A stretch of 64,000 bases of DNA, taken from assembly GCA_016206665.1 (NCBI GenBank), contig JACQRC010000100.1, positions 33 through 64,032 on the forward strand, read 5' to 3'. This DNA comes from Candidatus Omnitrophota bacterium (GTDB lineage: Bacteria; Omnitrophota; Gorgyraeia; Aquiviventales; JACQRC01). Positions 1 through 12,720 of this stretch are shown here, in pieces. Position numbers and translations under genes: made by a program. The notes under the pieces are model-generated. The model was not told the DNA's origin. It saw only the letters and a list, made by a program, of their open reading frames with translations, and did not search any database. Numbering within the stretch: the stretch's first letter is position 1; the number at the start of each line of letters is the position of its first letter.

Positions 1-9
1 CAGCCTAAC

Positions 10-2532
10 ATGCAATCCAGGGGTTGTCGAATAGTGGTACGTCACCGCCTCGGTGCCCGACTCGTGCTGGCCCTCGGCCTGTGGCTATGGCTGGCCCCGC
101 CCGCCTTCGCCCGGACCGCCACGTGGGATGGGGGGGGCGGCGATAATCTCGATTCCACGGCGGCGAACTGGGATTCAGATACCTTGCCGGTCGCTGGCGA
201 TGATATCGTCTTCAACGGCACCAGTACCACAAATTGTAATTGGGGCAATCTCGGGCTCGGGTACAACTCCTTCTCCATGAATGCCGGCTATACCGGGACG
301 GTATCGGGCGGGGATGTTCTCGCCGACACGATCACCGTCTCCTCGGGCACCCTGACGCAGGCAGCGGGTGGTGTCGTGGGTGATTCGGGTGGTGGCAGCG
401 TGAACACGCTGACCATCAACAGCGGTGCGACGTTCACGGCAGGCGGTTCCTGGATCACCGATTCCAACTCGACGCTGACGTTAAACGGCGCGGTCACCTT
501 CAACGGCAATGGTAGTACCTTAAGCGGCCCGACCACGATCGGGGGGACCATGACAGTCGTCTCACCGCTCACCATCTCATTTGCGTCGCCTACTGCCTTC
601 ACGCTGAACTCGGGTGGGACCATCAACGGCGCCGGCACGGTCAGCTATTCCCGTATTGTTGCTCCCACGCTGAATGGCACGATCACCATGCAGTCCGGCT
701 CCACCTTTGGGACGTTCCGGTATACCGTCGGGACGGCGGCCGTGCCCACCCTCACCGTGCCGGCCACGACGTATACGAGTCACCTGGACCTGAGACCGGC
801 GAACGTCAATGCCACCTACACCATTGGAGCTGGGACGCTCTCGGTCGCGGGCAACTTCCGCATGGACCATTCCACTGCCGGCAAGACGACGACGGTGACC
901 AACGCGACGAACAACACCCCGATCACGGTCGGCGGCAACTGGGATGATGATGGCACCGCCGGCTCTGCCACCTACACCCCTGGCACCGAGACGGTGACCT
1001 TCGATGGCAGCGGTGCGACCGGCACCATCACCATTGACACGACGAACATCACCACCACCTGGTACAACGTCACCTTCAACGAAAGCGGCACCACCTTCAA
1101 CGTCACCGGCACCGCCACGGTCACCGGCGCCTTGACGGTGGGCAGCGGCACCACCCTCGACATCGATGGGGACATGACCATAACCGCGAGTGGTTCGTCC
1201 ATCGACAACAGCGGCACGATCGATGAGACCGAAGGCCAGCTCCTCCATCCCGCCACCTCGCTGAAGCTCACCGACCAAGACGGCAACGAAGTCGCCGACT
1301 ACGACTTCGGGGCCGAGTCAGTCTACGTGACGTTGGTGGACGAGGATGAGAATCTGAACGGCACGAGTGCGGATACCGCCAACGGGGTGACGGTCACCTG
1401 CGGCAGTGACAGCGAGGCGATGTCCGGGAGCTTCCTCTTGACCGAAACCGGCGCCAAGACCGAGACCTTCCGCAACACGACCGCGCTGCCCACCCGGCTG
1501 CTGACCACGAGCCAGAGTCCCACGACCAACAACAGCAAGCTCGAGTGCCGGCCCACCGATACCATCTCGGTGGCCTACACCGACCAGGAGGATAGTACCG
1601 ACAACACCGGCACCGATACGACCACCGTCAACCCCGCCGGCGTCATCACGATCGGCCAGACGCTGAACAAGACGAAAGCCACCCCGGGGGAGCCGGTCCT
1701 CGTCACCGTCACCCTCACCAATAACGGGGCGGATAGCTACACCTTCAATGTGGAAGACAGCCTGCCCGCCGGCTTCGCCTTCAAGGAGGGCTCCGCCGCG
1801 CTCGATGGCGCCGCCGTGAGTCCCAGCTCGACAGGGAATCCGCTGGTCTTCAGTTCCATCACCACCACCGCGAACCAGGTCCGGACCCTCAAATACCTCC
1901 TCACCATCGGCAGCGTGCCGCCGGGCCAGTACATCAACTCGCTCATCGCGCGGCAAAATCCGGTCATCTCCAACCTCTCGGCCGTGACGCTCACGGTCGT
2001 GCCGGATCCGCTCTTCACCCTCGCCACCCTCCTCGGCAAGGTCTTCGTGGATGCCAACGCCAATGGCCGGCAGGACCGCCACGAACCCGGCCTCGCCGAT
2101 ATCCGCCTCGCCACCGAAGAAGGCGTCACCGTCACGACCGACACGGCGGGTCGCTTCCATCTGCCGGATCTCTTGCCCGGCCGGCATCTGCTCAAGCTCG
2201 ATCAAACCACCCTGCCCCCTGGGGCGACCCTCACCACGGAACATACCCGGCTCATCACGGCGACGGATGGCTCCTTGAGTAAGGTCAACTTCGGCGTCCG
2301 CCTGCCGTCAACAACGAACAGCGTCCTAAGTCCTAAGTCCGAAGTCCTGAGTCGCTCACCCGCGGAAACCGACATCGGACATAGGACGTTCTACCGCCTT
2401 GCGCGAGTTGGCCGTGACGCAGCTGCCGGCGGTGGCGCAGCCGCGGTTGGCCGTGAGCGTCTCGCCGGCCACGGTGCAGCTCACCCGCGAGGGCCGGTTC
2501 GCGGAGCCGGTGACGTTTACCATCAGCTGTAA
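10..2532 (+). CDS. Large secreted surface/adhesin-like protein, paralog A (frame-1 part; authentic sequence probably ends near nt 2350, the rest looks like out-of-frame read-through)
   Basis: ORF track 840 aa. Signal-like N-terminus LVLALGLWLWLAPPAFA. T/S/N/G-rich repetitive N-terminal half typical of beta-helix adhesins. DUF11-like repeat (VTLTNNGADSYTFNVEDSLPAGFAF). SdrD-B/Cna-B-like module (GKVFVDANANGRQDRHEPGLADIRL...TDTAGRFHL). Collinear with paralog B (2773..5337) up to KVNFGVRL. After the heptamer tract at 2323..2353, frame 1 turns Ala/Gly/Arg-rich with no counterpart in paralog B. GTG at 34 is an alternative start. Confidence 0.8.
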   Translation: MQSRGCRIVVRHRLGARLVLALGLWLWLAPPAFARTATWDGGGGDNLDSTAANWDSDTLPVAGDDIVFNGTSTTNCNWGNLGLGYNSFSMNAGYTGTVSGGDVLADTITVSSGTLTQAAGGVVGDSGGGSVNTLTINSGATFTAGGSWITDSNSTLTLNGAVTFNGNGSTLSGPTTIGGTMTVVSPLTISFASPTAFTLNSGGTINGAGTVSYSRIVAPTLNGTITMQSGSTFGTFRYTVGTAAVPTLTVPATTYTSHLDLRPANVNATYTIGAGTLSVAGNFRMDHSTAGKTTTVTNATNNTPITVGGNWDDDGTAGSATYTPGTETVTFDGSGATGTITIDTTNITTTWYNVTFNESGTTFNVTGTATVTGALTVGSGTTLDIDGDMTITASGSSIDNSGTIDETEGQLLHPATSLKLTDQDGNEVADYDFGAESVYVTLVDEDENLNGTSADTANGVTVTCGSDSEAMSGSFLLTETGAKTETFRNTTALPTRLLTTSQSPTTNNSKLECRPTDTISVAYTDQEDSTDNTGTDTTTVNPAGVITIGQTLNKTKATPGEPVLVTVTLTNNGADSYTFNVEDSLPAGFAFKEGSAALDGAAVSPSSTGNPLVFSSITTTANQVRTLKYLLTIGSVPPGQYINSLIARQNPVISNLSAVTLTVVPDPLFTLATLLGKVFVDANANGRQDRHEPGLADIRLATEEGVTVTTDTAGRFHLPDLLPGRHLLKLDQTTLPPGATLTTEHTRLITATDGSLSKVNFGVRLPSTTNSVLSPKSEVLSRSPAETDIGHRTFYRLARVGRDAAAGGGAAAVGRERLAGHGAAHPRGPVRGAGDVYHQL
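2323..2353 (+). repeat. Imperfect heptanucleotide tandem repeat GTCCTAA GTCCTAA GTCCGAA GTCCTGA GTC inside paralog A
   Basis: Read directly from the sequence. 7-nt period, 4 units plus a partial unit. Locally AT-richer than the surrounding gene. Coincides with the reading-frame change of paralog A. Confidence 0.9.
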
Positions 2533-2776
2533 CTATCCGCAGTTCATTACCCAGTGGACCCTCGTCGTGGCGCAGGATGAGCATTGGCTGGTCAAGGTCT
2601 TTACCGGCACAGGCCCACCGCCGACCACCCTGACGTGGCACGGTGAACTCGACACCGGTACCCTCGAGCCCTCGTTGTACCTGTACCGTCTCTTTGTGTG
2701 GGATCAGAAGCAGCATGAGGATTTTACACCGTTGCAGAGTGTTGAGGTGAGAAACGGGGGGGCGGTCACGCCGTGA
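2351..2776 (+). CDS. C-terminal Ig-like domain segment of paralog A, encoded in the +1 frame relative to 10..2532
   Basis: Frame is open from 2351 (ORF track calls 2399..2776). Translation ...LRELAVTQLPAVAQPRLAVSV...LYLYRLFVWDQKQHEDFTPLQSVEV is collinear with the C-terminus of paralog B. Stop TGA 2774..2776 overlaps the paralog B start (GTGATGA). Confidence 0.65.
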   Translation, partial: VAHPRKPTSDIGRSTALRELAVTQLPAVAQPRLAVSVSPATVQLTREGRFAEPVTFTISCNYPQFITQWTLVVAQDEHWLVKVFTGTGPPPTTLTWHGELDTGTLEPSLYLYRLFVWDQKQHEDFTPLQSVEVRNGGAVTP

Positions 2777-5337
2777 TGAGACGCCGCCTCGTCCTAGCCC
2801 TTCTGGTCGGTCTGGCGTGGGCCCCGCCGGCCTTCGCCGCCACGCGGACCTGGGATGGCGGGGGAGGCGACGCCAACGCCTCGACCGCGGCGAACTGGAG
2901 CGCGGATACGGCGCCGGTGGCTGCGGATGACGTCGTCTTCGACGGCACCAGCACCAAGGACTGCACGTGGGACTTAGCCCTCTCGGTGGCTTCGGTGTCG
3001 TTGAATAGCGGCTACACGGGCACCGTGACAGAGACCGCCGCGCTCACGGCGACCAGCAGCATGACCATCTCCGCAGGCGCCTGGAACATCAATAGCGGCA
3101 TCACTCTGACCAGCTCCGGCGCCACCTTCACGTTGAACTCGGGCGGCACCCTCAGCGGCACGGGCACCATCAACCGGACCAACACCACCGCCCCGACCCT
3201 CAGCGGGACGATTAACATGCAGTCGGGGACGACCTTTGGGACCTTCCGGTATACCCTGACGAGTAACGCGACCATCCCCGCCGCGACCTACACCAGCGAC
3301 CTCTCGCTGCGCGGTGGCTCAGGGGCCGGCACCCGCACCTTCACGGTCGGCGCCGGCACCTTGACCGTGGCGGGGAACCTGGATCTCGACAAGGCCACGC
3401 TCGGCTCCACGATGCTGCTGACCAACGCCACCAACAACACCAACCTCACCATCGGCGGCAACTGGGATGACGCCGGCCAAGCCGGCCTCAGCACCTACAC
3501 CGCCGGCACCGAGACGGTGACGTATAATGGCAGCGGGGCTACCGGCACGGTGACCCTTGACATAGTCAATTTCGTCACCACTTGGAACAACGTGACGTTC
3601 AATGAGAGTGGCACCACCTTCAACATCACCGAGGCCGCGACGATCACCGGGGCCTTGACCGTGGGTAGTGGAACCACCTTGGACATCGGCGGCGAGCTGG
3701 TCATGACCGCCAGCGGCTCCTCGATTGACAACAGCGGCACGATCGATGAGACCGGCGTCGATCAGGACGGCGACCCGGTCAAGATCACGCATCCGGCCAC
3801 CTCCTGCAAGCTCACCGACAAGGACGGTAACGAAGTTGCCGGCTACGCCCTCAAGGACGATCTCCTCTACGTGACGTTGGTCGATGAGGATGAGAACCTC
3901 AATGGCACGGCGGCGGATACCGCCAACGGGGTCACGGTCTCGATCTCCGGCGGCGATAGCGAGACGATGAGCGGGACGTACATCCTCACCGAGACCGGAG
4001 CGAAGACCGAGACCTTCCGCAACACGACCGGCCTGCCCACCGCGCTCCTCCAAGCCGGCCAGACCGGCACCGCCAATAACGGCGTCTTGGAGCTCCTGGC
4101 CACGGATACCATCTCCGTGGCCTACACCGATGGGGAAGACAGCACCGACAACGCCGCCAGCGATACCGCCGCCACCCAGACCGTGGGCGCGAGCCTCCTC
4201 ACCATCGGCCAGAGCCTCAGCAGTACCCGCGTCAGCCCGGGTCAGCCCGTGGCGGTCACGGCGACGCTCACCAACAACCAAACGACCAACGCCCTCACCT
4301 TCCGGGTGGAAGATACCCTGCCGGTCGGCTTCGTCTTCCAAGCGGGCAGTGCGGCCCTCGATGGCGTGGCCATGACGCCGACCGTCGCCGACCAGACGCT
4401 GACCTTCTCCAATATCACCGTCAATGCCACCGCCTCCAGGACGCTCCGGCTGCTCCTGATTCCTGGCAGCCTCACGCCAGGGGAATACATCAATAGGATG
4501 CTCGCGCGCATTAACCCCGTGATCTCGAACGTCAGTCAAGTCACGATCACCGTGACCCCTGACCCGCTCTTCACGCTCTCCACGCTGCTCGGCAAGGTCT
4601 TCGTGGATGCCAACGGCAATGGAAGACAAGATCGGGACGAACCGGGCCTCGCCGATATCCGCCTGGCCACCGAAGAAGGCGTGACCGTGACCACGGATAC
4701 CGCCGGCCGCTTCCATCTGCCGGATCTGCTCCCGGGCCGGCATTTGCTCAAACTCGACCGCACCACCTTGCCCCCCGGAGCGTCCCTGACCACGGAACAT
4801 ACCCGGCTCATCACGGCGACCGATGGCTCGCTCAGCAAAGTCAACTTTGGGGTGCGGCTGGGGCGGGAGGCCAGGAGCCAGCAATCAGCAATCAGCAATC
4901 AGCAATCAGCAGCCATCAGCCTGCCGAAGGAGTTACCCGTCACAGATCTCTCCGTCACCCAGCTGCCGGCGGTGGCGCGGCCGATCTTGGCGATTCGGGT
5001 GGAGCCACCGATCCTACGCATCGAGCAGACCAGCCTGGCAGAGCCGGCCGTCTTTCGCATTGACTGCAACTATCCGTTCTTCGTGAAGGCGTGGATCATT
5101 GCGATTGCCACGGATGACGAGCAGCTGCTCCAGACGCTCACCGGGGCCGGGCCGCCGCCAGCCTCGGTGGAATGGGATGGCCGATTAGAGGTGGGGGAGC
5201 TGCTCGCGGGCCGCAGCTACCGCTATCGGCTCTTTGTTTGGAATGGAGAGGGGCGCCAGGATTTCACCTCCTTACAGCGGTTTACCGTCGAGCTCTATCA
5301 ACCTCCGGCCACAGCAGTTTCCAAAACTTTCCCTTGA
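2773..5337 (+). CDS. Large secreted surface/adhesin-like protein, paralog B (intact; DUF11-like repeat, SdrD-B-like module, C-terminal Ig-like domain)
   Basis: ORF track 854 aa. Start is GTG 2773 or ATG 2776. Signal-like LVLALLVGLAWAPPAFA followed by TRTWDGGGGD as in paralog A. VTATLTNNQTTNALTFRVEDTLPVGFVF (DUF11-like). GKVFVDANGNGRQDRDEPGLADIRL... (SdrD-B-like). C-terminal WDGRLEVGELLAGRSYRYRLFVWNGEG motif typical of FlgD-Ig-like domains. Confidence 0.85.
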   Translation: MMRRRLVLALLVGLAWAPPAFAATRTWDGGGGDANASTAANWSADTAPVAADDVVFDGTSTKDCTWDLALSVASVSLNSGYTGTVTETAALTATSSMTISAGAWNINSGITLTSSGATFTLNSGGTLSGTGTINRTNTTAPTLSGTINMQSGTTFGTFRYTLTSNATIPAATYTSDLSLRGGSGAGTRTFTVGAGTLTVAGNLDLDKATLGSTMLLTNATNNTNLTIGGNWDDAGQAGLSTYTAGTETVTYNGSGATGTVTLDIVNFVTTWNNVTFNESGTTFNITEAATITGALTVGSGTTLDIGGELVMTASGSSIDNSGTIDETGVDQDGDPVKITHPATSCKLTDKDGNEVAGYALKDDLLYVTLVDEDENLNGTAADTANGVTVSISGGDSETMSGTYILTETGAKTETFRNTTGLPTALLQAGQTGTANNGVLELLATDTISVAYTDGEDSTDNAASDTAATQTVGASLLTIGQSLSSTRVSPGQPVAVTATLTNNQTTNALTFRVEDTLPVGFVFQAGSAALDGVAMTPTVADQTLTFSNITVNATASRTLRLLLIPGSLTPGEYINRMLARINPVISNVSQVTITVTPDPLFTLSTLLGKVFVDANGNGRQDRDEPGLADIRLATEEGVTVTTDTAGRFHLPDLLPGRHLLKLDRTTLPPGASLTTEHTRLITATDGSLSKVNFGVRLGREARSQQSAISNQQSAAISLPKELPVTDLSVTQLPAVARPILAIRVEPPILRIEQTSLAEPAVFRIDCNYPFFVKAWIIAIATDDEQLLQTLTGAGPPPASVEWDGRLEVGELLAGRSYRYRLFVWNGEGRQDFTSLQRFTVELYQPPATAVSKTFP
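4879..4920 (+). repeat. Heptanucleotide tandem repeat (CAGCAAT)x4 followed by degenerate CAGCAGC CATCAGC inside paralog B
   Basis: Read directly: four perfect units at 4879..4906. Translated in frame as SQQSAISNQQSAAIS. Sits at the same linker position as the 2323..2353 tract of paralog A. Confidence 0.9.
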
Positions 5338-5363
5338 CAGGGAAAACTTCTTAAAAGTATGAT
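5334..5363 (+). promoter_or_regulatory. Sigma70-like promoter candidate TTGACA-N18-TATGAT upstream of the barrel gene
   Basis: TTGACA at 5334..5339 (contains the stop TGA of paralog B) and TATGAT at 5358..5363. Lies in an AT-rich 78-bp gap. RBS AGGAGAGG at 5398..5405, 10 nt before ATG 5416. Confidence 0.4.
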
Positions 5364-5415
5364 AAAATGACGTTTAGCATCAACCGCACAAGCGCTTAGG
5401 AGAGGTTGCTGGCGT

Positions 5416-8400
5416 ATGCTCACCCGACCAGGGTGGGGAATCGTAGGCATCTGGTGCGCAGCGCTCTTGACGGCTCCTGCGCCGAGTTGGGCCGAGGGCT
5501 TTCCGCAACTCAACATGAGCCAACCCGGCCCGCAGCAGACGATTCCTGTCTCCGGCAACCTCATCCGCGTTGAAGGCTACGTCCCCCCACGACATGAACT
5601 CCGCATCAACGACCGCACCGCGCCCGTCTCCCGCGAACGCAAATTTTCCACCGAGCTGATTCTGCCGCAGGGCGAGCACGCCATCGATGTGGAGGTGGTT
5701 GACCCTGCGGGCCAGGTCTACCGCGAGACCAAGCCGGTGACGGTGAACGACCATTATCTCTTCTTCGTGTCGCTGAGCGAAGCGGAGCTCGGCCATCTCG
5801 CGGCGAAGGGGCAGGTGGGGTCGCTCACCAATGAGGATCGGCAGCGGATGGAGCGGGAGATCTACTTCGACGGCCGCGTCGCCTACTACCTCAAGGCCAA
5901 GGTCAAGGGCAAGTACCTGGTGACCTCCAGCTACGACATCGATCGGGAGCGCAAGGAGCTGTTCCGCAACTTGGAGCCGGAAGATTTTTATCCCATCTAC
6001 GGCGACAACTCGACGATCAACTATGACGCGGCGAACACGCAGGACCGGCTGTACCTGCTCGTCGAATCCGGCAAGTCGTCCTTCTTGTGGGGCAATTATG
6101 GCACGGGCCTCACCGGCACCGAGTTTGCCCGGTACAACCGGACCTTAAGCGGCGGCAAGCTCCATTACGAATCGGTGGCGACCTCCCAGCGCGGCGATCC
6201 CAACACCCTGCTGATTCTCTTTTCCGCTGCGGCGCGGCAATTAGCGGCGCATGACGATCTGCGCGGCACCGGCGGCAGCCTCTACTACCTGAAGAACAAG
6301 GACGTCATCCAGGGCAGCGAGAAACTGTCGCTCGAAATCCGGGATGAGACGACCGGGACGACGATCAGCCGGCAGCCGTTGGCCGTCGGCGCCGATTACG
6401 AGATCGACTACGACCAGGGGCGCCTCCTGATGACGCGGCCGGTGCCTTCGGTGTCGCAGGGGACCGATTTCTCCATCATCTCGACGAATATTCTCAACGG
6501 GAATCCCGTCGTGTTAGTGGCGGAGTATGAGTACAAGCCCTCGGCCACGATGAAGGATGAGACGTTCGGGAGCCGCGTGGCCCGGCAGTTCGGTCCGGTC
6601 CGGCTGGGCGGGACGCTGCTGCGCGAGACGCAGCAGAGCGCCGACTACGAACTGCGCGGACTCGACGCGGCCATTGACCTGCCGGCCCAGACCCGGGTGA
6701 GCGGCGAGTATGCCCTCTCGCAGGTCTCCAGCGCCCGCCAGAACTTCTCCTCCGACGGGGGCATCACCTTCACGAGCATCACGCAGCCGGGCGCCGGCAC
6801 AAAAGGGGAGGCCTACAAGATCGAGGCGACCGCCCAACCATTCAAAGGCACGACCATGACAGGGTTCCACCGTCAGGTGGACCAGGACTTCTCCAACACC
6901 GGCTCCGCCTTTGAGGCCGGCACCATCAAGACCGGCGGCTCCGTGACCCAGCGGTTGGGCCCCAACACGACGGTCAGCGCCTCCCACGTCCTGCAGCGGC
7001 TCGTCAAGGACGGCAACCAGCAATCGTCGCAGAACGTCGGCTCGCAGCGCGAGCGGACGACGAGCGTCCAGGCGACGCATCAGGTCGGCAAGTTGGGGCT
7101 GACGGGGGAGTACCGCCATCTGGACAAGAATCAACCCCTGAACGCCGCGACCAAACAGCAACAGGATCTGGCCGCGGCCCGGGTGAGCTATCAGGTCACG
7201 CCGAAGTGGAACGTCTACGCGCAGGACCAGGTGACGTTGCGCGGCGACAACTCGAACCAGGGGCAGGTCGGCACGACCTTCGCGCTCGCCGACAAGACGA
7301 CGGTGAGTCTCTCGCAGGCGGTGGGGAATCAGGGCGACGCCACCCAGTTTGGCCTCGAGCGTCAGTTGGATCCTCATTCTTCGCTCTACACGCACTACAC
7401 CCTGACCCAGCAGCCGTCCGGCCTCAAGCAGGCCACGACCACCTTCGGCGGCCGCACCAAGATGAATGACCGGACCTCGTTGTATACCGAGCAGGAGTAC
7501 CGCACCTATCCGGGCACGACGCAGTCCGCGAATATTCTCGGCGCGGGCACGCAGGTGAACGACCGGCTCTACCTCGACGCCTCCGTCGAGCGCTCGCACA
7601 CCGACACCAACGTTCAGGACTCGACGAACAACGCCGTCAAGTTGGGGCTCAACTACATCGACATTGATTGGATCAAGGCCTCGACGAGCGGCGAGCTGCG
7701 GTTCACCGAAGCGCCCACCCATGAGCGGCAGGTGGTCACAAAGAACGTCGTCGAGCTGCATCCGTCCAAGGAGTGGTCGTTGTTGGGCCGGTATGAGTAC
7801 GCGCCGACCCGCAACACCGTCACCGACACGAATCTCGCCCGCTTCCAGGAGTTGCATCTGGGGGCGGCCTACCGGCCGACGCGGTGGGATTGGCTCAACT
7901 GGTTGGGCCGCTACGTCCGTCTGGAAGATAAAGCCCCCGCCTCTCAGGCCGACACGACCGGCTCGATCTCGCGGACGAGCCAGATTTACTCCACCGAGGC
8001 CGTCATCGATCTGCCGGGGAATTTTGAGCTGGCTGAAAAGTTTGCCCGTAGGGACCGGCAGGAGCAGCTCGCCGGCATCGCCGGGCAGACGAACACGCAG
8101 ACCTACCTCTGGGTCAATCGGCTGACCTATCATCTGACGGATCGCTGGAACCTCATCGGCGAGTACCGGCTGTTGCGGCAGCGGCAGGCCGACGACGCCA
8201 GGCAGGGCGTGTTGTTGGAGGTGGACCGCAACTTCTTCAACACCGTCCGGGTGGGCGCAGGCTATAACTTCACCAACTTCCGCGACGACTTGACCGGGGC
8301 GAACGACTTCGACGCGCACGGCTTGTTCGTACGGCTGACGGGGACACTGACCGACCAGAGTCTCGACGATGTCCAGCGGTTCCTGCAACGCCACTGGGAG

Positions 8401-8751
8401 CAGAAGATCAACGCCTACGCGGAGGCCCTGCTGCGCGCCCGTCTCCAGCTGCCCGGCGACACGACATTAGCCGAGATGAGCCGCGACCTCGACGTGGCCC
8501 GTCAGGCGATGGCGGCAGGCGAGTTTGAGACGGCGCTGCAGCGCTACCATCAGATTCTGGCCAAGCACACCGCGCTCCGGTTGCATGCGCGCACCCTCAT
8601 TGACCAGCACATGGCCCAGGAGGCGGCAGCGCACCAGGCGTTGCGGCAAGCCCGGCAGAGTTTGCGCGCCGGATATCTCGAAGAGGCGGCCGCCCAATTT
8701 CAGCAGGCGAAAGCCCAGGCGCAGGGGTTGAGGCAGGCCCCATTACAATGA
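5416..8751 (+). CDS. Very large predicted outer-membrane beta-barrel protein with N-terminal Ig-like segment and C-terminal helical tail
   Basis: ORF track 1111 aa. Signal-like N-terminus GIVGIWCAALLTAPAPSWA. About 850 aa of Y/T/S/Q/G/N/R-rich alternating-strand sequence ending in an OMP-type terminal strand (VRVGAGYNFTNF...HGLFVRLTGTL). Last ~150 aa are Ala/Gln/Arg/Leu-rich and helical. Confidence 0.6.
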   Translation: MLTRPGWGIVGIWCAALLTAPAPSWAEGFPQLNMSQPGPQQTIPVSGNLIRVEGYVPPRHELRINDRTAPVSRERKFSTELILPQGEHAIDVEVVDPAGQVYRETKPVTVNDHYLFFVSLSEAELGHLAAKGQVGSLTNEDRQRMEREIYFDGRVAYYLKAKVKGKYLVTSSYDIDRERKELFRNLEPEDFYPIYGDNSTINYDAANTQDRLYLLVESGKSSFLWGNYGTGLTGTEFARYNRTLSGGKLHYESVATSQRGDPNTLLILFSAAARQLAAHDDLRGTGGSLYYLKNKDVIQGSEKLSLEIRDETTGTTISRQPLAVGADYEIDYDQGRLLMTRPVPSVSQGTDFSIISTNILNGNPVVLVAEYEYKPSATMKDETFGSRVARQFGPVRLGGTLLRETQQSADYELRGLDAAIDLPAQTRVSGEYALSQVSSARQNFSSDGGITFTSITQPGAGTKGEAYKIEATAQPFKGTTMTGFHRQVDQDFSNTGSAFEAGTIKTGGSVTQRLGPNTTVSASHVLQRLVKDGNQQSSQNVGSQRERTTSVQATHQVGKLGLTGEYRHLDKNQPLNAATKQQQDLAAARVSYQVTPKWNVYAQDQVTLRGDNSNQGQVGTTFALADKTTVSLSQAVGNQGDATQFGLERQLDPHSSLYTHYTLTQQPSGLKQATTTFGGRTKMNDRTSLYTEQEYRTYPGTTQSANILGAGTQVNDRLYLDASVERSHTDTNVQDSTNNAVKLGLNYIDIDWIKASTSGELRFTEAPTHERQVVTKNVVELHPSKEWSLLGRYEYAPTRNTVTDTNLARFQELHLGAAYRPTRWDWLNWLGRYVRLEDKAPASQADTTGSISRTSQIYSTEAVIDLPGNFELAEKFARRDRQEQLAGIAGQTNTQTYLWVNRLTYHLTDRWNLIGEYRLLRQRQADDARQGVLLEVDRNFFNTVRVGAGYNFTNFRDDLTGANDFDAHGLFVRLTGTLTDQSLDDVQRFLQRHWEQKINAYAEALLRARLQLPGDTTLAEMSRDLDVARQAMAAGEFETALQRYHQILAKHTALRLHARTLIDQHMAQEAAAHQALRQARQSLRAGYLEEAAAQFQQAKAQAQGLRQAPLQ

Positions 8752-10019
8752 CAGCGAACGGACGGCTCATGATGATGGTGATCGCCGTGGCGGCCTCGCT
8801 GGCCCCTAACGGTACGCCGGCCTTCGCAGCCGAGAAGCAGTCGCCCACCATTCCCACCAAGGGGTACAAGTATAATCTCGAGGCGATCATCAAGCAGGCG
8901 GAGCAGGGGTTGAAGGAAGCCGAGCACCAACTCGAGGAGCAGCGGCGCGCGGCGGAGCGCGCAAAAGAAGCCGAGGCGCTCCACACCCAAGTGGATGAGG
9001 CGAATCAGTTGTTAGAGGCCGGTCAGTACGTGCAGGCCAAAGCGAGTTTTGAGCGCATCCTGGCCACGGCCAAGGATCCGGCTATGCGTCAGGCGATGCG
9101 CCCGCTGCGCGAGCGGGCCGAGGCCCTCGAGCGGCAGGCCCAGCAGGAGCAGCGAGCAGCAAGCAGCCAGCAGCAAGCAGCACGAGCGGCCGAGCAGCGA
9201 CGACAACAACAGCAGCAAGTAGCGAGCAGCAAGCAGCAAGTAGCAAAAGAAAAAGAACAACGGCGACGACAGGAACGCGAACGTCGTGCCCAGGCCCGCG
9301 CCGAACGGCAGCGTCAACGGGAGTTAGTCAAACGGCAACGAGCCGAGGAACTACAGCAGCAACGCACCCGTCGAGAGCAAACCCAAGCAGAGGCGCAAGC
9401 ACAGCGCGCGCAGCAACAGGCCGAACAAGCGGAACAGCGACGTCTTCGTGAAGCACGGCGTCGCCAGGCGGAGGACCAGGCCCGGCAAGCCCGCGCTCAG
9501 CGAGAGGCCGAGCTCGCCAAACAGCACGAGGAGCGCCGACAGGCCGAGCAACGGCATGTTCAGGAACGCGCCGAGCGGGCCCGTGCCGAGACGGCGCGGA
9601 AAGCTGAAGTCAGACGGCAGGCCGAGGAGCGCCAGGCCCAGGCCCGCGCTGAGCGGCAGCGTCAACAGGAATTAGTCAAACGGCAACGAGCCGAAACACT
9701 GCAGCAACAACGCGCCACCGAGGCCCGCCAGGCGGAACAGGCTCGGCGGGCCAGGCAGCGCCAACGGCAGCGCCCCAAACCCCAATCATCACTGAACAGC
9801 GAGCGGCAAGCAGCGAGCAGCAAGCAGACAGCAGCCAGCACCCAGCCGGCGACGCAGGTCAAGGCCCAACGCGCCGCCGCCATGGAGGCGGCCGCCAGAG
9901 GGGCCCGCCTCCGCGCGCAGGAACGCCAACGCGTGATGGAGCGGGCGATGGACCGCCTCCACCGAGCCGATCGCGCCTCGTCGGCCCGCAACACCACCGC
10001 TACCTCCCCCCAACCGTAA
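8748..10019 (+). CDS. Secreted Q/R/E/A-rich coiled-coil protein
   Basis: ORF track 423 aa. ATG 8748 overlaps the upstream stop (ATGA). Signal-like MMMVIAVAASLAPNGTPAFA. More than 300 aa of charged Gln/Arg/Glu/Ala low-complexity helix-type sequence with an internal duplication. Confidence 0.7.
   Translation: MTANGRLMMMVIAVAASLAPNGTPAFAAEKQSPTIPTKGYKYNLEAIIKQAEQGLKEAEHQLEEQRRAAERAKEAEALHTQVDEANQLLEAGQYVQAKASFERILATAKDPAMRQAMRPLRERAEALERQAQQEQRAASSQQQAARAAEQRRQQQQQVASSKQQVAKEKEQRRRQERERRAQARAERQRQRELVKRQRAEELQQQRTRREQTQAEAQAQRAQQQAEQAEQRRLREARRRQAEDQARQARAQREAELAKQHEERRQAEQRHVQERAERARAETARKAEVRRQAEERQAQARAERQRQQELVKRQRAETLQQQRATEARQAEQARRARQRQRQRPKPQSSLNSERQAASSKQTAASTQPATQVKAQRAAAMEAAARGARLRAQERQRVMERAMDRLHRADRASSARNTTATSPQP
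9148..9245 (+). repeat. Two tracts with 7-nt periodicity (AGCAGCN x5 at 9148..9182; AGCAGCA AGTAGCG AGCAGCA AGCAGCA AGTAGCA at 9211..9245)
   Basis: Read directly from the sequence. Encodes AASSQQQAA... and QQVASSKQQVAKEK. Confidence 0.8.
9291..9716 (+). repeat. Two ~78-bp direct repeats (9291..9368 and 9639..9716), 348 bp apart, inside the coiled-coil gene
   Basis: CAGGCCCGCGC(C/T)GA(A/G)CGGCAGCGTCAAC...TTAGTCAAACGGCAACGAGCCGA... occurs twice. Protein-level repeat AQARAERQRQ(R/Q)ELVKRQRAE(E/T)LQQQR. Confidence 0.85.
9797..9845 (+). repeat. Seven consecutive CAGNNAG-type heptamers (CAGCGAG CGGCAAG CAGCGAG CAGCAAG CAGACAG CAGCCAG CACCCAG)
   Basis: Read directly from the sequence. Encodes SERQAASSKQTAASTQ. 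Confidence 0.75.
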
Positions 10020-10033
10020 ATTCCACAGTCGGC

Positions 10034-10062
10034 TTGCAATGGACGGCGCCTTCCCTTATAAT
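10034..10062 (+). promoter_or_regulatory. Sigma70-like promoter candidate TTGCAA-N17-TATAAT upstream of ugd
   Basis: TTGCAA at 10034..10039, 17-nt spacer, TATAAT at 10057..10062. AGGAG at 10079..10083 precedes ATG 10089. Confidence 0.5.
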
Positions 10063-10088
10063 GTCCCCCTGTTCTCACAGGAGCGCGC

Positions 10089-11393
10089 ATGGACCTTTGT
10101 GTGATCGGGGCCGGACATGTCGGACTGGTGACCGGGGCCTGTTTCGCCGAATTAGGCCACCACGTCATCATCGTGGACAACGACGCGGCCAAGATTCGGC
10201 AGTTGAAGCGGGGTCGCCTGCCCTTCTTTGAGCCGGGGCTGGAGGAGCTGGTCCACCGGACCGTGGCGGAGCGGCGCCTGCGGTTCACCGCCACGCTGGC
10301 GGAAGGGGTGCGCGCCTCCCTCATCATCTTTATCGCCGTGGGGACGCCGCAGAAGCCCAGCGGGGAAGCCGACTTGACGCACGTTGAGCACGTCACGCGG
10401 GGGATCGCCGCTCATCTGACCGGCTACCGCCTCATCGTCGAGAAGTCCACGGTGCCCGTCGAGACGGGGCAGTGGATCCAGCACACGCTGCGGACCTACA
10501 CGCGGCGGAAGGTTCCCTTCGACGTCGCCTCCAACCCCGAATTTCTGCGGGAGGGGACCGCGATCCAAGACCTCCTGCATCCCGACCGGATCGTGCTCGG
10601 CGTCGAGACGGCGCGGGCCAAGGAGCTCCTGCTCCAGCTCTATAAACCGTTGAACGCCCCCCTCGTGGTCACCGACATCCGCTCCGCGGAATTGATCAAG
10701 CACGCCTCCAATTCCTTCCTCGCCACCAAGATCTCCTTCATCAACGCGATTGCGCGCCTCTGCGAGCTGGTCGGCGCCGACGTGGTGAAGGTGGCCGAGG
10801 GGATGGGCCTCGATCCGCGGATCGGCCCGGCGTTTCTTTCGGCCGGCCTGGGCTTCGGGGGCTTCTGCCTGCCCAAGGACATCGATGCCTTTGTCCATCT
10901 GGCCGACAAGGTGGGCTACGACTTCGCCCTGCTGAAGGCGGTCAAGCAGATCAATGACGAGGCGCGCGAGCACTTCGTCCGCAAGATCGAGCAGGCCCTC
11001 TGGGTGGTCAAGGACAAGACGATCGCCATCCTGGGGCTGTCCTTCAAACCGGATACCGACGACATGCGCTATGCCCCCGCGCTCGACGTTATCCGTGCAC
11101 TGCAGCATGACGGGGCACGCATCCGGGCCTTCGACCCGCAGGCCATGGCCCACGCCGACGGCCTGCTGCCGAAGGTGACGATGTGCCGCGACCCCTACGA
11201 CGCCGCCAAAGGGGCCGACTGCCTCGCCATCGTGACGGATTGGAACGAGTTCAAGGAGCTGGATTTCAAGCGGTTGAAGCGGTTGCTGCGGCAACCGCTC
11301 ATTGTCGACGGCCGCAACGTCTACGACGCGGCCGTCCTGCGTCGCCTGGGCTTCCGCTATATCAGCGTCGGCCGCCGCGACGTCAGCGCCTGA
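10089..11393 (+). CDS. ugd: UDP-glucose 6-dehydrogenase
   Basis: 434 aa. N-terminal MDLCVIGAGHVGLVTGACFAELGHHV Rossmann motif. Central GFGGFCLPKD catalytic-Cys motif. Typical UDP-glucose/GDP-mannose dehydrogenase family layout. Confidence 0.9.
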   Translation: MDLCVIGAGHVGLVTGACFAELGHHVIIVDNDAAKIRQLKRGRLPFFEPGLEELVHRTVAERRLRFTATLAEGVRASLIIFIAVGTPQKPSGEADLTHVEHVTRGIAAHLTGYRLIVEKSTVPVETGQWIQHTLRTYTRRKVPFDVASNPEFLREGTAIQDLLHPDRIVLGVETARAKELLLQLYKPLNAPLVVTDIRSAELIKHASNSFLATKISFINAIARLCELVGADVVKVAEGMGLDPRIGPAFLSAGLGFGGFCLPKDIDAFVHLADKVGYDFALLKAVKQINDEAREHFVRKIEQALWVVKDKTIAILGLSFKPDTDDMRYAPALDVIRALQHDGARIRAFDPQAMAHADGLLPKVTMCRDPYDAAKGADCLAIVTDWNEFKELDFKRLKRLLRQPLIVDGRNVYDAAVLRRLGFRYISVGRRDVSA

Positions 11394-11403
11394 CGGAACG
11401 TTC

Positions 11404-12720
11404 ATGGCCTCCACCTCCCTCACCCTCCTCCAACGCCGCCTGATGAGCCACCACGCCACGATTGGCATCGTCGGCTTGGGCTATGTGGGCCTACCGCTGG
11501 CGGTCGGCTTCGCGCGCGCCGGCTTTTCCGTCATCGGCATCGATGTGGATGCCAAGCGTGTGGCCGCGGTCAATCGGGGCGACTCCTACATCCTCGACAT
11601 TGCCGGAGCCGATCTGCGCCCGCTCGTGCGCGCAGGCTCGCTGCGCGCCACCGCCGAGGAGCGCGCGTTGGACCGCTGCGACGTGGTCATCATCTGCGTG
11701 CCCACGCCGTTGCGCAAGACCCGCGAGCCGGACATCTCCTTCATCGTCGACGCCGCCGACCGGATCGCGCGCCATCTGCACCGCGGAGAGCTGATCATCC
11801 TGGAGAGCACCACCTATCCCGGTACCACGGAGGAGTTGATTCTGCCCCGCCTGGACGGGCGCCGGTTCAAGGTGGGGCGGGACTTCTTCCTCGCCTTTTC
11901 GCCGGAGCGGGTGGACCCGGGCAACCGGCAGTTCACGACGACGAACATCCCGAAGGTGGTGGGGGGGCAGACGCCGCGCTGTTCGGCGCTCGCGAAGCGG
12001 CTCTATGAGCAGATCGTGCCGCGCGTCGTGACGGTGTCGTCGACCCGCGCCGCCGAGATGGTGAAGCTGCTCGAGAACACCTTCCGCAGCGTCAACATCG
12101 GCCTCGTCAACGAAATGGCCCTCATGTGCCACCGGTTGAATCTCAATGTCTGGGAGATTATCGACGCGGCCAAGACGAAGCCCTTCGGCTTCATGCCCTT
12201 CTACCCGGGGCCGGGGCTGGGCGGCCACTGCCTGCCGATCGATCCGATCTATCTATCGTGGAAGGCGCGGATGCACGGCTTCGAGGCGCGCTTCATCGAG
12301 CTGGCCGCGCAGGTCAACGAGTACATGCCGCACTACGTCGTGGAGCGGCTGGGCGCGGCGCTCAATGAGGCCGGCCAGGCCCTCAAGGGCTCGCGCGTGC
12401 TGTTGGTGGGCATGGCCTACAAGAAGAATGTGAACGATATCCGCGAATCGCCCGCGCTGGAGATTGCCAGACTGTTAGGCGAGCGGGGGGCGAGGGTGGC
12501 CTACCATGATCCGCATGTGCCGGGCCTGCGGCTCGACGCCGTCTCGCTGCGATCGCAACCGCTGACGCCGGCCCTGCTGAAGCGGCAGCAGGCCGTCGTC
12601 ATCGTGACCGATCATGACCGCGTCAACTATGCGCGCCTGTTGCAGCATGCCCGGCTGGTGCTCGACACGCGCAACCGTCTCCACGGCGTCCGGGGACGCG
12701 CCAAGGTGGTGACCCTATGA
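11404..12720 (+). CDS. Nucleotide-sugar dehydrogenase, UDP-N-acetyl-hexosamine 6-dehydrogenase-like (WbpO/TviB/WecC type)
   Basis: ORF track starts at 11302, but ATG 11404 lies after the ugd stop and gives ...IGIVGLGYVGLPLAVGFARAGFSVIGIDVD. GLGGHCLPIDP catalytic-Cys motif. Confidence 0.8.
   Translation: MASTSLTLLQRRLMSHHATIGIVGLGYVGLPLAVGFARAGFSVIGIDVDAKRVAAVNRGDSYILDIAGADLRPLVRAGSLRATAEERALDRCDVVIICVPTPLRKTREPDISFIVDAADRIARHLHRGELIILESTTYPGTTEELILPRLDGRRFKVGRDFFLAFSPERVDPGNRQFTTTNIPKVVGGQTPRCSALAKRLYEQIVPRVVTVSSTRAAEMVKLLENTFRSVNIGLVNEMALMCHRLNLNVWEIIDAAKTKPFGFMPFYPGPGLGGHCLPIDPIYLSWKARMHGFEARFIELAAQVNEYMPHYVVERLGAALNEAGQALKGSRVLLVGMAYKKNVNDIRESPALEIARLLGERGARVAYHDPHVPGLRLDAVSLRSQPLTPALLKRQQAVVIVTDHDRVNYARLLQHARLVLDTRNRLHGVRGRAKVVTL

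Follow-up and report, generated by a model that had tools for sequence, protein, structure and literature searches.

Heptanucleotide repeats within coding sequences are established genetic switches. In neuO of the Escherichia coli K1 prophage CUS-3 an (AAGACTC)n tract is located in the 5' coding region, and the gene is ON when n is divisible by 3; tracts of 3–53 units were described, with 20 units being the commonest, and the switching was measured. Neisseria pglE is also switched by a heptanucleotide repeat. In Haemophilus influenzae strain PittAA, hmw1A contains (AATTTTG)14 in the middle of its open reading frame (ORF) together with a frameshift, and hmw repeats range from 13 to 38 units. 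Here, a stretch of 64,000 nucleotides (nt), referred to as the 64-kb window or the window throughout the paper, was analyzed from a Candidatus Omnitrophica genome assembled from a groundwater metagenome (locus tags HY597_). Two tandem paralogous genes on its plus strand, named paralog A and paralog B, each carry a tract of 7-nt units in the short linker in front of the C-terminal domain. An earlier note on this DNA had taken the shared unit length and the shared position of both tracts to suggest that their frame-shifting property is maintained. Our analysis did not bear out this suggestion. The tracts of A and B are probably slippage-born heptamer repeats tolerated in a permissive linker and not a maintained on/off switch, and the locus adds a further case to the known class of heptanucleotide simple repeats within coding DNA.

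The resemblance to the described switches goes only part of the way. Like in neuO, the ORF includes a 7-nt tandem repeat whose translation is a heptad peptide, and paralog B obeys the same divisible-by-3 arithmetic in simulations. Unlike in neuO with its repeat near the 5' end, the 4.7 units found here lie approximately 84% into the gene, the C-terminal domain alone is at stake, and the case is known from sequence alone. With hmw1A the locus shares a heptanucleotide repeat deep in a large adhesin gene which, in the case of paralog A, coincides with a frameshift. However, the repeats of hmw1A and pglE consist of many perfect units, belong to host-adapted pathogens and vary in copy number between strains, whereas tract A is short, degenerate and stop-bearing. 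A second group of relatives is found among the generic long-unit repeats of prokaryotes. According to published surveys, heptamers outnumber the other long repeat units in most prokaryotic genomes (Mrazek and co-workers 2007, via PMC4679880, PMC4692102), they are especially common in large, high-G+C, non-pathogen genomes, and polymerase slippage is suggested as the cause (PMC4679880, PMC4692102). The excess of period 7 observed in the window and in our comparison loci agrees with this picture. The same surveys stress intergenic sites and an under-representation of non-triplet units in ORFs, whereas the four period-7 tracts of the window are all coding.

Paralog A as it stands is the frame-1 ORF at 10..2532 (stop 2530..2532; HY597_06740 in the NCBI annotation, P0002, 832 residues). 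Paralog B is an intact ORF of 854 codons at 2773..5337, for which NCBI sets the start at the ATG at 2776 (P0001) and in which Pfam detects DUF11 and SdrD_B. The order of parts is the same in both paralogs, with a signal-peptide-like N-terminus, a long Thr/Gly/Asn-rich beta-type region, a DUF11-type region, an SdrD-B-like module, a short linker and the C-terminal domain. Paralogs A and B are secreted, adhesin-like surface-type proteins, each with one FlgD-Ig-like C-terminal domain. In both genes the SdrD-B-like module closes with KVNFGVRL (last codon CTG, ending at 2304 in A and at 4860 in B), exactly six codons follow, the last of them AGC, and then the tract begins; downstream of the tract both paralogs continue with VTQLPAVA(Q/R)P. 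Thus, the common linker position noted before was confirmed, with both tracts starting exactly 18 nt after KVNFGVRL. The 18 nt themselves (2305..2322 and 4861..4878) are unlike between the paralogs, with 6 of 18 bases in agreement.

Tract A on the plus strand at 2323..2353 is composed of two GTCCTAA units, one GTCCGAA, one GTCCTGA and a final GTC. Tandem Repeats Finder (TRF) reported it with a period of 7, 4.4 copies, 87% matches, a score of 48 and GTCCTAA as unit; just two adjacent units are identical. Tract B on the same strand at 4879..4920 starts with 4.7 exact copies of CAGCAAT up to 4911 (TRF period 7 at 4879..4911, 100% matches, score 66), continues with the degenerate CAGCCATCAG, and is preceded by a degenerate leading unit CAGGAGC at 4872..4878. 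Hence the tracts had been located and described correctly before. With 43% G+C in each of the units GTCCTAA and CAGCAAT compared to 65.7% for the window, both are indeed AT-richer islands, and the two units are unrelated, agreeing at no more than 3 of 7 bases in the best register. Both are 7-nt and consequently non-triplet units inside ORFs. In paralog B the reading frame across the linker is SQQSAISNQQSAAIS, as had been stated before, and the tract itself is translated in frame as QQSAISNQQSAAIS; it merely lengthens the linker by a Gln/Ser-rich stretch. Along the 3' third of A and B, the similarity of the paralogs collapses in one place only, the linker between the SdrD-B-like module and the C-terminal domain.

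The two paralogs differ in their reading frames behind the tract, a fact missed in the earlier note. The body of paralog A is read in frame 1 and ends in an out-of-frame tail after the tract, while its conserved C-terminal domain is encoded in frame 2 of the plus strand, in a stretch open from 2351 to 2776 which NCBI has partly called as HY597_06745 (P0068, 107 residues). Similarity of this frame-2 stretch to B and to the orthologue described below begins at LRELAVTQLPAVAQP, from 2399, and its stop at 2774..2776 overlaps the ATG of paralog B. The domain shows no decay: 142 codons are open, every family-invariant residue is retained, and it is 44–45% identical to the C-terminal FlgD-Ig-like domain of paralog B (4951..5334, plus strand). 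Paralog A therefore contains a net +1 shift between tract and C-terminal domain, and what the assembled sequence encodes is a truncated body and, uncoupled from it, the domain. The break is confined to approximately 90 nt including the tract, in a gene of 2.8 kb. In simulations a 919-residue protein A was restored by a one-base deletion anywhere in 2348..2413 or by the loss of unit 4 (2344..2350), which places the break in or just after the tract. The A region has suffered a frameshift or a mis-assembly. A programmed ribosomal frameshift was considered and rejected, as a +1 shift would be needed after 2350 and neither a zero-frame stop nor, by eye, a slippery motif was seen there.

Simulated changes in unit number separated the two tracts further. 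Among 14 gains or losses of one or two units in tract A, the deletion of unit 4 was the only one to restore the full protein; the other 13 met stops. In any frame, a heptamer repeat runs through all seven of its codons, so that a heptamer containing a stop triplet closes all three frames once three units are present. In GTCCTAA one strand contains TAA and the other TAG, and three perfect units thus close all six frames, another point that had escaped the earlier note. Tract A is open in frame 1 only through the change of TAA to GAA in unit 3, the change of TAA to TGA in unit 4 being silent there (CTA to CTG). With stops in its consensus unit, degenerate units and one restoring change in 14, tract A did not behave as a reversible switch in these simulations. 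CAGCAAT contains no stop in any sense frame. A change of one or two units in tract B truncated the protein before the C-terminal domain, as had been predicted, and a change of three units kept the protein whole.

Relatives of the two genes are rare. The first protein search returned the proteins of the window itself, P0003 and P0004 only. P0003 is 69% identical to B and is encoded on a contig of 3.6 kb that ends inside the SdrD-B-like module, before the linker. P0004 is a low-G+C relative with 38% identity which lacks the C-terminal domain. Using a profile of the C-terminal domain, one true orthologue fragment was found (P0069 on locus L002), and a scan of metagenomes yielded the same lineage in a second sample (L123). 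In both, the linker reads KVNFGVRL-PQPKAGGRAP-LRELSVTQLPAVAQP in frame, and in this single lineage from two samples no tandem repeat was found at the linker. Compared to the orthologue linker, A has approximately 64 nt and B approximately 45 nt of extra length. As the orthologue linker is free of repeats, both tracts are insertions made after the split from the orthologue lineage. The earlier note had proposed to look for recurring 7-nt tracts at the linker of orthologous loci and had named their absence as one half of what would speak against maintenance; absence is what the sole orthologue lineage shows. In 292 kb of more distant SdrD-B relatives, whose tails differ, no period-7 tract was detected either. 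Exact-protein look-ups for paralog B and P0003 gave no match on record, and each protein of the window is on record from one contig only.

Is a unit of seven bases by itself informative? In the 64-kb window tract B is the only exact period-7 repeat with at least three copies. Allowing one mismatch, three tracts of period 7 (0.0 in shuffled sequence), two of period 6 and none of periods 8–15 were found in the window. For a broader view bacterial genomes, one per species, were scanned for at least three GTCC(T/G)(A/G)A units. At least 120 loci were obtained from Acidobacteriota, Verrucomicrobiota, Planctomycetota, Bacteroidota, Chloroflexota, cyanobacteria, one member of the Omnitrophota and others. 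These 0.89 Mb of comparison loci were chosen for carrying one heptamer type and represent a biased sample of genomes; with the ascertained tracts set aside, they contained 74 further heptamer tracts of unrelated units, compared to 6, 14, 9 and 2 tracts of periods 5, 6, 8 and 9. A special, horizontally spread GTCC(T/G)(A/G)A family was considered and rejected, since in viral contigs, on which shuffled-unit controls were run, GTCCKRA tracts were found at 15 loci and the three shuffled units at 15, 13 and 15; three units of CAGCAAT occurred at 9. Given that period 7 dominates the long repeats in the window, in the comparison loci and in the surveys, an equal unit length in A and B is expected from mutation bias alone.

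The linker position likewise needs no selection to account for it, since in-frame tracts are also found in linkers of housekeeping and essential proteins. Where tracts in other genomes were spanned by long ORFs, Pfam identified seven genuine proteins, in each of which the tract is read in frame and occupies a loop or the space between two domains. In valyl-tRNA synthetase (ValRS) the tract precedes the C-terminal arm, in a phosphoenolpyruvate-synthase-like enzyme it lies between the ATP-binding and the mobile domain, and in a 5'-3' exonuclease (L043) it separates the two domains, with both arms of a hairpin being translated. The other host proteins are HemB, a class-III aminotransferase, RACo with two tracts, and MutL with the tract in a disordered linker. 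As several of them are essential, phase variation is implausible in ValRS, MutL and HemB. The same unit length in A and B is probably a matter of mutational bias and the same position a matter of tolerance; neither of them indicates selection for frameshifting. The in-frame linker tracts were found at loci L090, L104, L120, L043, L115, L074 and L010, and the peptides SPKSEVR, SPESGVR and DSGLRTQ recur among them.

The following sequence of events would account for the locus. Replication slippage, which favors 7-nt units in bacteria, may have created and expanded a tract in the linker of each paralog. Alternatively, a single tract might have been present in the common ancestor of A and B, its unit having been turned over later. 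Within the 3' third of the gene the linker alone would be free of constraint, so that tracts settle there, and heptamer tracts would persist where their translation is harmless. Tract A may additionally have gained an inverted copy, yielding a small hairpin with a heptamer-periodic stem; in frame 1 it was accommodated by two point changes. The shift in A would then represent a recent frameshift in the repeat/hairpin region or a local assembly error. Two candidate traces of the origin of tract A were tried and rejected. The stretch CAACAACGAACAGC upstream of tract A, examined as a remnant of a B-type tract, agrees with (CAGCAAT)n at 9 of 14 positions, which is not significant (p-value of 0.03–0.12). 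The CCGAAG (Pro-Lys) of the orthologue linker as seed of the tract A unit is merely a six-base match and remained speculation.

Several observations weigh against tolerated slippage products. Both tracts start at the identical offset, right after AGC, and two independent events rarely give an identical offset; an ancestral tract with complete unit turnover or a preference for the site is needed. The break in A falls precisely into the repeat/hairpin segment with B being in frame, and an on/off contingency pair would look alike. The intact C-terminal domain of A would mean that it either has not been untranslated for long or is still somehow expressed. The perfect units of tract B suggest recent slippage. 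Finally, the orthologue comparison comprises one lineage only. If nevertheless the tracts are plain tolerated repeats, a non-triplet repeat in a surface-protein gene is not by itself evidence of a switch, and units of the same length in two paralogs mean little, seven being the default. Of possibly wider importance, the translated heptamer tracts and whole hairpins in linkers of essential proteins of many phyla represent a little-described route by which slippage-born DNA adds residues to proteins.

The first alternative to tolerated repeats is a contingency locus, at which slipped-strand mispairing alters the number of 7-nt units and thereby couples or uncouples the C-terminal FlgD-Ig-like domain, with B ON and A OFF. 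We regard this as unlikely. In simulations, paralog B with its 4.7 perfect units and all sense frames open was truncated by a change of one or two units and stayed whole at three units; nevertheless, copy numbers of 4.4 and 4.7 are at the low end of the range of proven heptamer switches, and from a position so late in the gene an OFF state still gives a protein of approximately 765 residues. The break in A maps to the tract/hairpin segment and is followed by an undecayed domain, as in an OFF partner, but the tract is degenerate, carries stops on both strands of its consensus unit and regains the frame by 1 of 14 changes. The presence of non-triplet repeats in the ORFs of two surface-type genes that are tandem paralogs, with neuO, pglE and H. 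influenzae hmw1A as precedents, is suggestive of phase variation, yet an orthologue exists without the repeat, and neither the 7-nt unit nor the linker position requires selection to be expected. Of the switch interpretation of the earlier note the arithmetic of B stood, and the frame break at A was added in its favor, whereas the maintained frame-shifting did not hold. That A and B form a true contingency pair in this uncultured Omnitrophota bacterium, one being ON and one OFF in the sampled population, appears quite unlikely to us. With such a pair, repeat-driven phase variation would reach beyond host-adapted pathogens into an environmental candidate phylum, and the switch would act on a domain rather than on a whole protein. 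If the unit number of tract B proved to be heterogeneous, this would, to our knowledge, be among the early cases of phase variation driven by repeats in Omnitrophota.

Alternatively, the frameshift of A could be an artefact of assembly or consensus calling; in the cells both paralogs would then be in frame and the tracts plain linker-coding repeats. The break falls where a short repeat and a hairpin adjoin a module with 80–88% identity between the paralogs, and the contig of P0003 ends in the same module, which indicates that the region is hard to assemble. However, short-read assemblers seldom create insertions or deletions in heptamer tracts of four units, and the two variant units of tract A are just what the present open frame 1 calls for, so that at least this part looks real. 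One deleted base in 2348..2413 or the removal of unit 4 gives back the 919-residue protein, and the intact downstream domain of A has a stop overlapping the start of B as in a normal operon junction. An artefact is plausible, but we hold it to be unlikely.

The region of tract A forms an imperfect palindrome on the plus strand at 2330..2387, the left arm of which (2330..2346) lies within the tract; that tract A is one arm of a hairpin had also been missed before. The right arm at 2371..2387 consists of inverted heptamers and reads, on the minus strand, GTCCTAT, GTCCGAT and GTC. With a gap of 24 nt between them, the arms show 88% complementarity, and the loop includes CCGCGG. For 91 nt of RNA at tract A a fold of -31.5 kcal/mol was calculated, with a z-score of -4.2 and no shuffled sequence equalling it. 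No hairpin was found at tract B (z-score of +0.7), a second copy of the A hairpin was found nowhere in the 64-kb window, and the hairpin is absent from L002 and L123. It lies largely before the zone where the +1 shift must fall, or overlaps it. Rfam searches of positions 1..12000 of the window gave no family, with just spurious microRNA-hairpin matches for heptamer hairpins. The same architecture is found in many phyla, mostly in intergenic regions and at times translated within genes. No loop or terminal sequence is common to the hairpins of other genomes, their stems being made of the local heptamer, and accordingly they appear to have arisen locally and not by transposition, as far as can be judged from their sequences. 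The A hairpin is a small, degenerate example of a form common in other bacterial genomes.

Rickettsia palindromic elements reportedly are inserted in frame in protein-coding genes and form a dispersed family with conserved sequence. The A hairpin, and more clearly the tract of the L043 exonuclease, would parallel these elements in being palindromic DNA translated at a permissive site of an ORF; unlike them, the A hairpin occurs just once in the window and is now out of frame. That the approximately 64 extra bases of A represent the insertion of a mobile palindromic element, small and of the Rickettsia type or of the miniature inverted-repeat transposable element (MITE) type, which broke the frame, with slippage having made the B tract only, is very unlikely, since a hairpin with heptamer-periodic arms absent from the orthologue and recurring in many phyla, mostly intergenic and sometimes translated, would suit such an element, but no second copy is present in the window, the hairpins share neither loop nor ends, tracts of other units form them as well (16 of 74), local inversion or template switching fits better, and the extra length of A is not a clean element with target duplications.

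Among the matches listed, 36 of 134 GTCC-type tracts in bacterial loci were accompanied by an inverted partner at a distance of up to 250 nt, which clearly exceeds the background rate, and these partners were mostly 5–100 nt away. For tracts of other units in the same loci the count was 16 of 74, and for viral contigs, where inverted partners are rare, 1 of 72 tracts. Hairpins with stems of heptamer repeats were found at L029 589-728, L048 6738-6847, L061 7411-7568, L099 6141-6238, L102 6767-6853, L012 355-480 and L043 1564-1660, in many phyla. They are long and very stable, with -107 kcal/mol in L029 as an example, and the one in L099 is located directly 3' of the RNase P RNA gene (L099 5762-6133). 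Composite arrays with unrelated heptamer units within a few bases of each other were seen at L014 7572-7751, L057 5593-5745, L092 2875-3166 and L003 6960-7017, and 35 of the 74 non-ascertained tracts lie within 300 nt of an ascertained one. Comparable arrays are known from Xanthomonas (GGGAATC), cyanobacteria and Beggiatoaceae (TAACTGA), where 2–26 units, sometimes arranged as inverted stem-loop pairs, often occur as mixed units (PMC4679880, PMC4692102). Loci L003-L122 resemble these arrays in their inverted pairs and in mixed units side by side. In the arrays, one unit occupies hundreds of genome sites; unlike that, each unit in the 64-kb window is found at one locus only. The unit sequences give no evident sign of G-quadruplex potential, although no test aimed at it was made.

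No second GTCCTAA-type site is present elsewhere in the 64-kb window, and beyond tract B there are only a few CAGCAA-like matches, most of them in one Gln-rich gene. Further period-7 or period-14 tracts are located at 9148..9246 and 9797..9840 in the ORF at 8748..10019, with a unit CAGCAAG that is one base away from CAGCAAT. This ORF encodes a Gln/Arg/Ala/Glu-rich, probably coiled-coil protein, in which the tracts are in frame and are translated into repeats of the type ASSKQQV. Coding linkers or low-complexity coding segments thus hold all four period-7 tracts of the window.

The DNA of the SdrD-B-like module is 80–88% identical between A and B (2011..2310 versus 4580..4860), compared to approximately 55–78% for the rest of the genes, and the identity drops sharply at the linker. 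The high identity of the module points to gene conversion or to unusually strong constraint. The C-terminal domain of approximately 125 residues adopts a divergent FlgD-Ig-like fold with faint direct Pfam matches; its best remote relative is P0070, with seven FlgD_ig repeats plus OmpA. An exhaustive profile search with the domain (4951..5334 and 2399..2773) gave 1043 matching proteins, which carry it in multiple copies in other architectures, mostly as 5–14 tandem copies in proteins of 1000–1900 residues. A and B each hold a single copy at the very C-terminus, and the top profile match ends in OmpA. The gene downstream of paralog B, which encodes 1111 residues, was considered as a relative of the C-terminal domain and turned out to be unrelated on comparison. 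Neither an intrinsic terminator nor a promoter was found at either tract. A strong sigma-70-like promoter match (TTGACA, 18 nt, TATGAT; 11 of 12 positions) is present at 5334..5363, at the end of paralog B and ahead of the 1111-residue ORF at 5416..8751.

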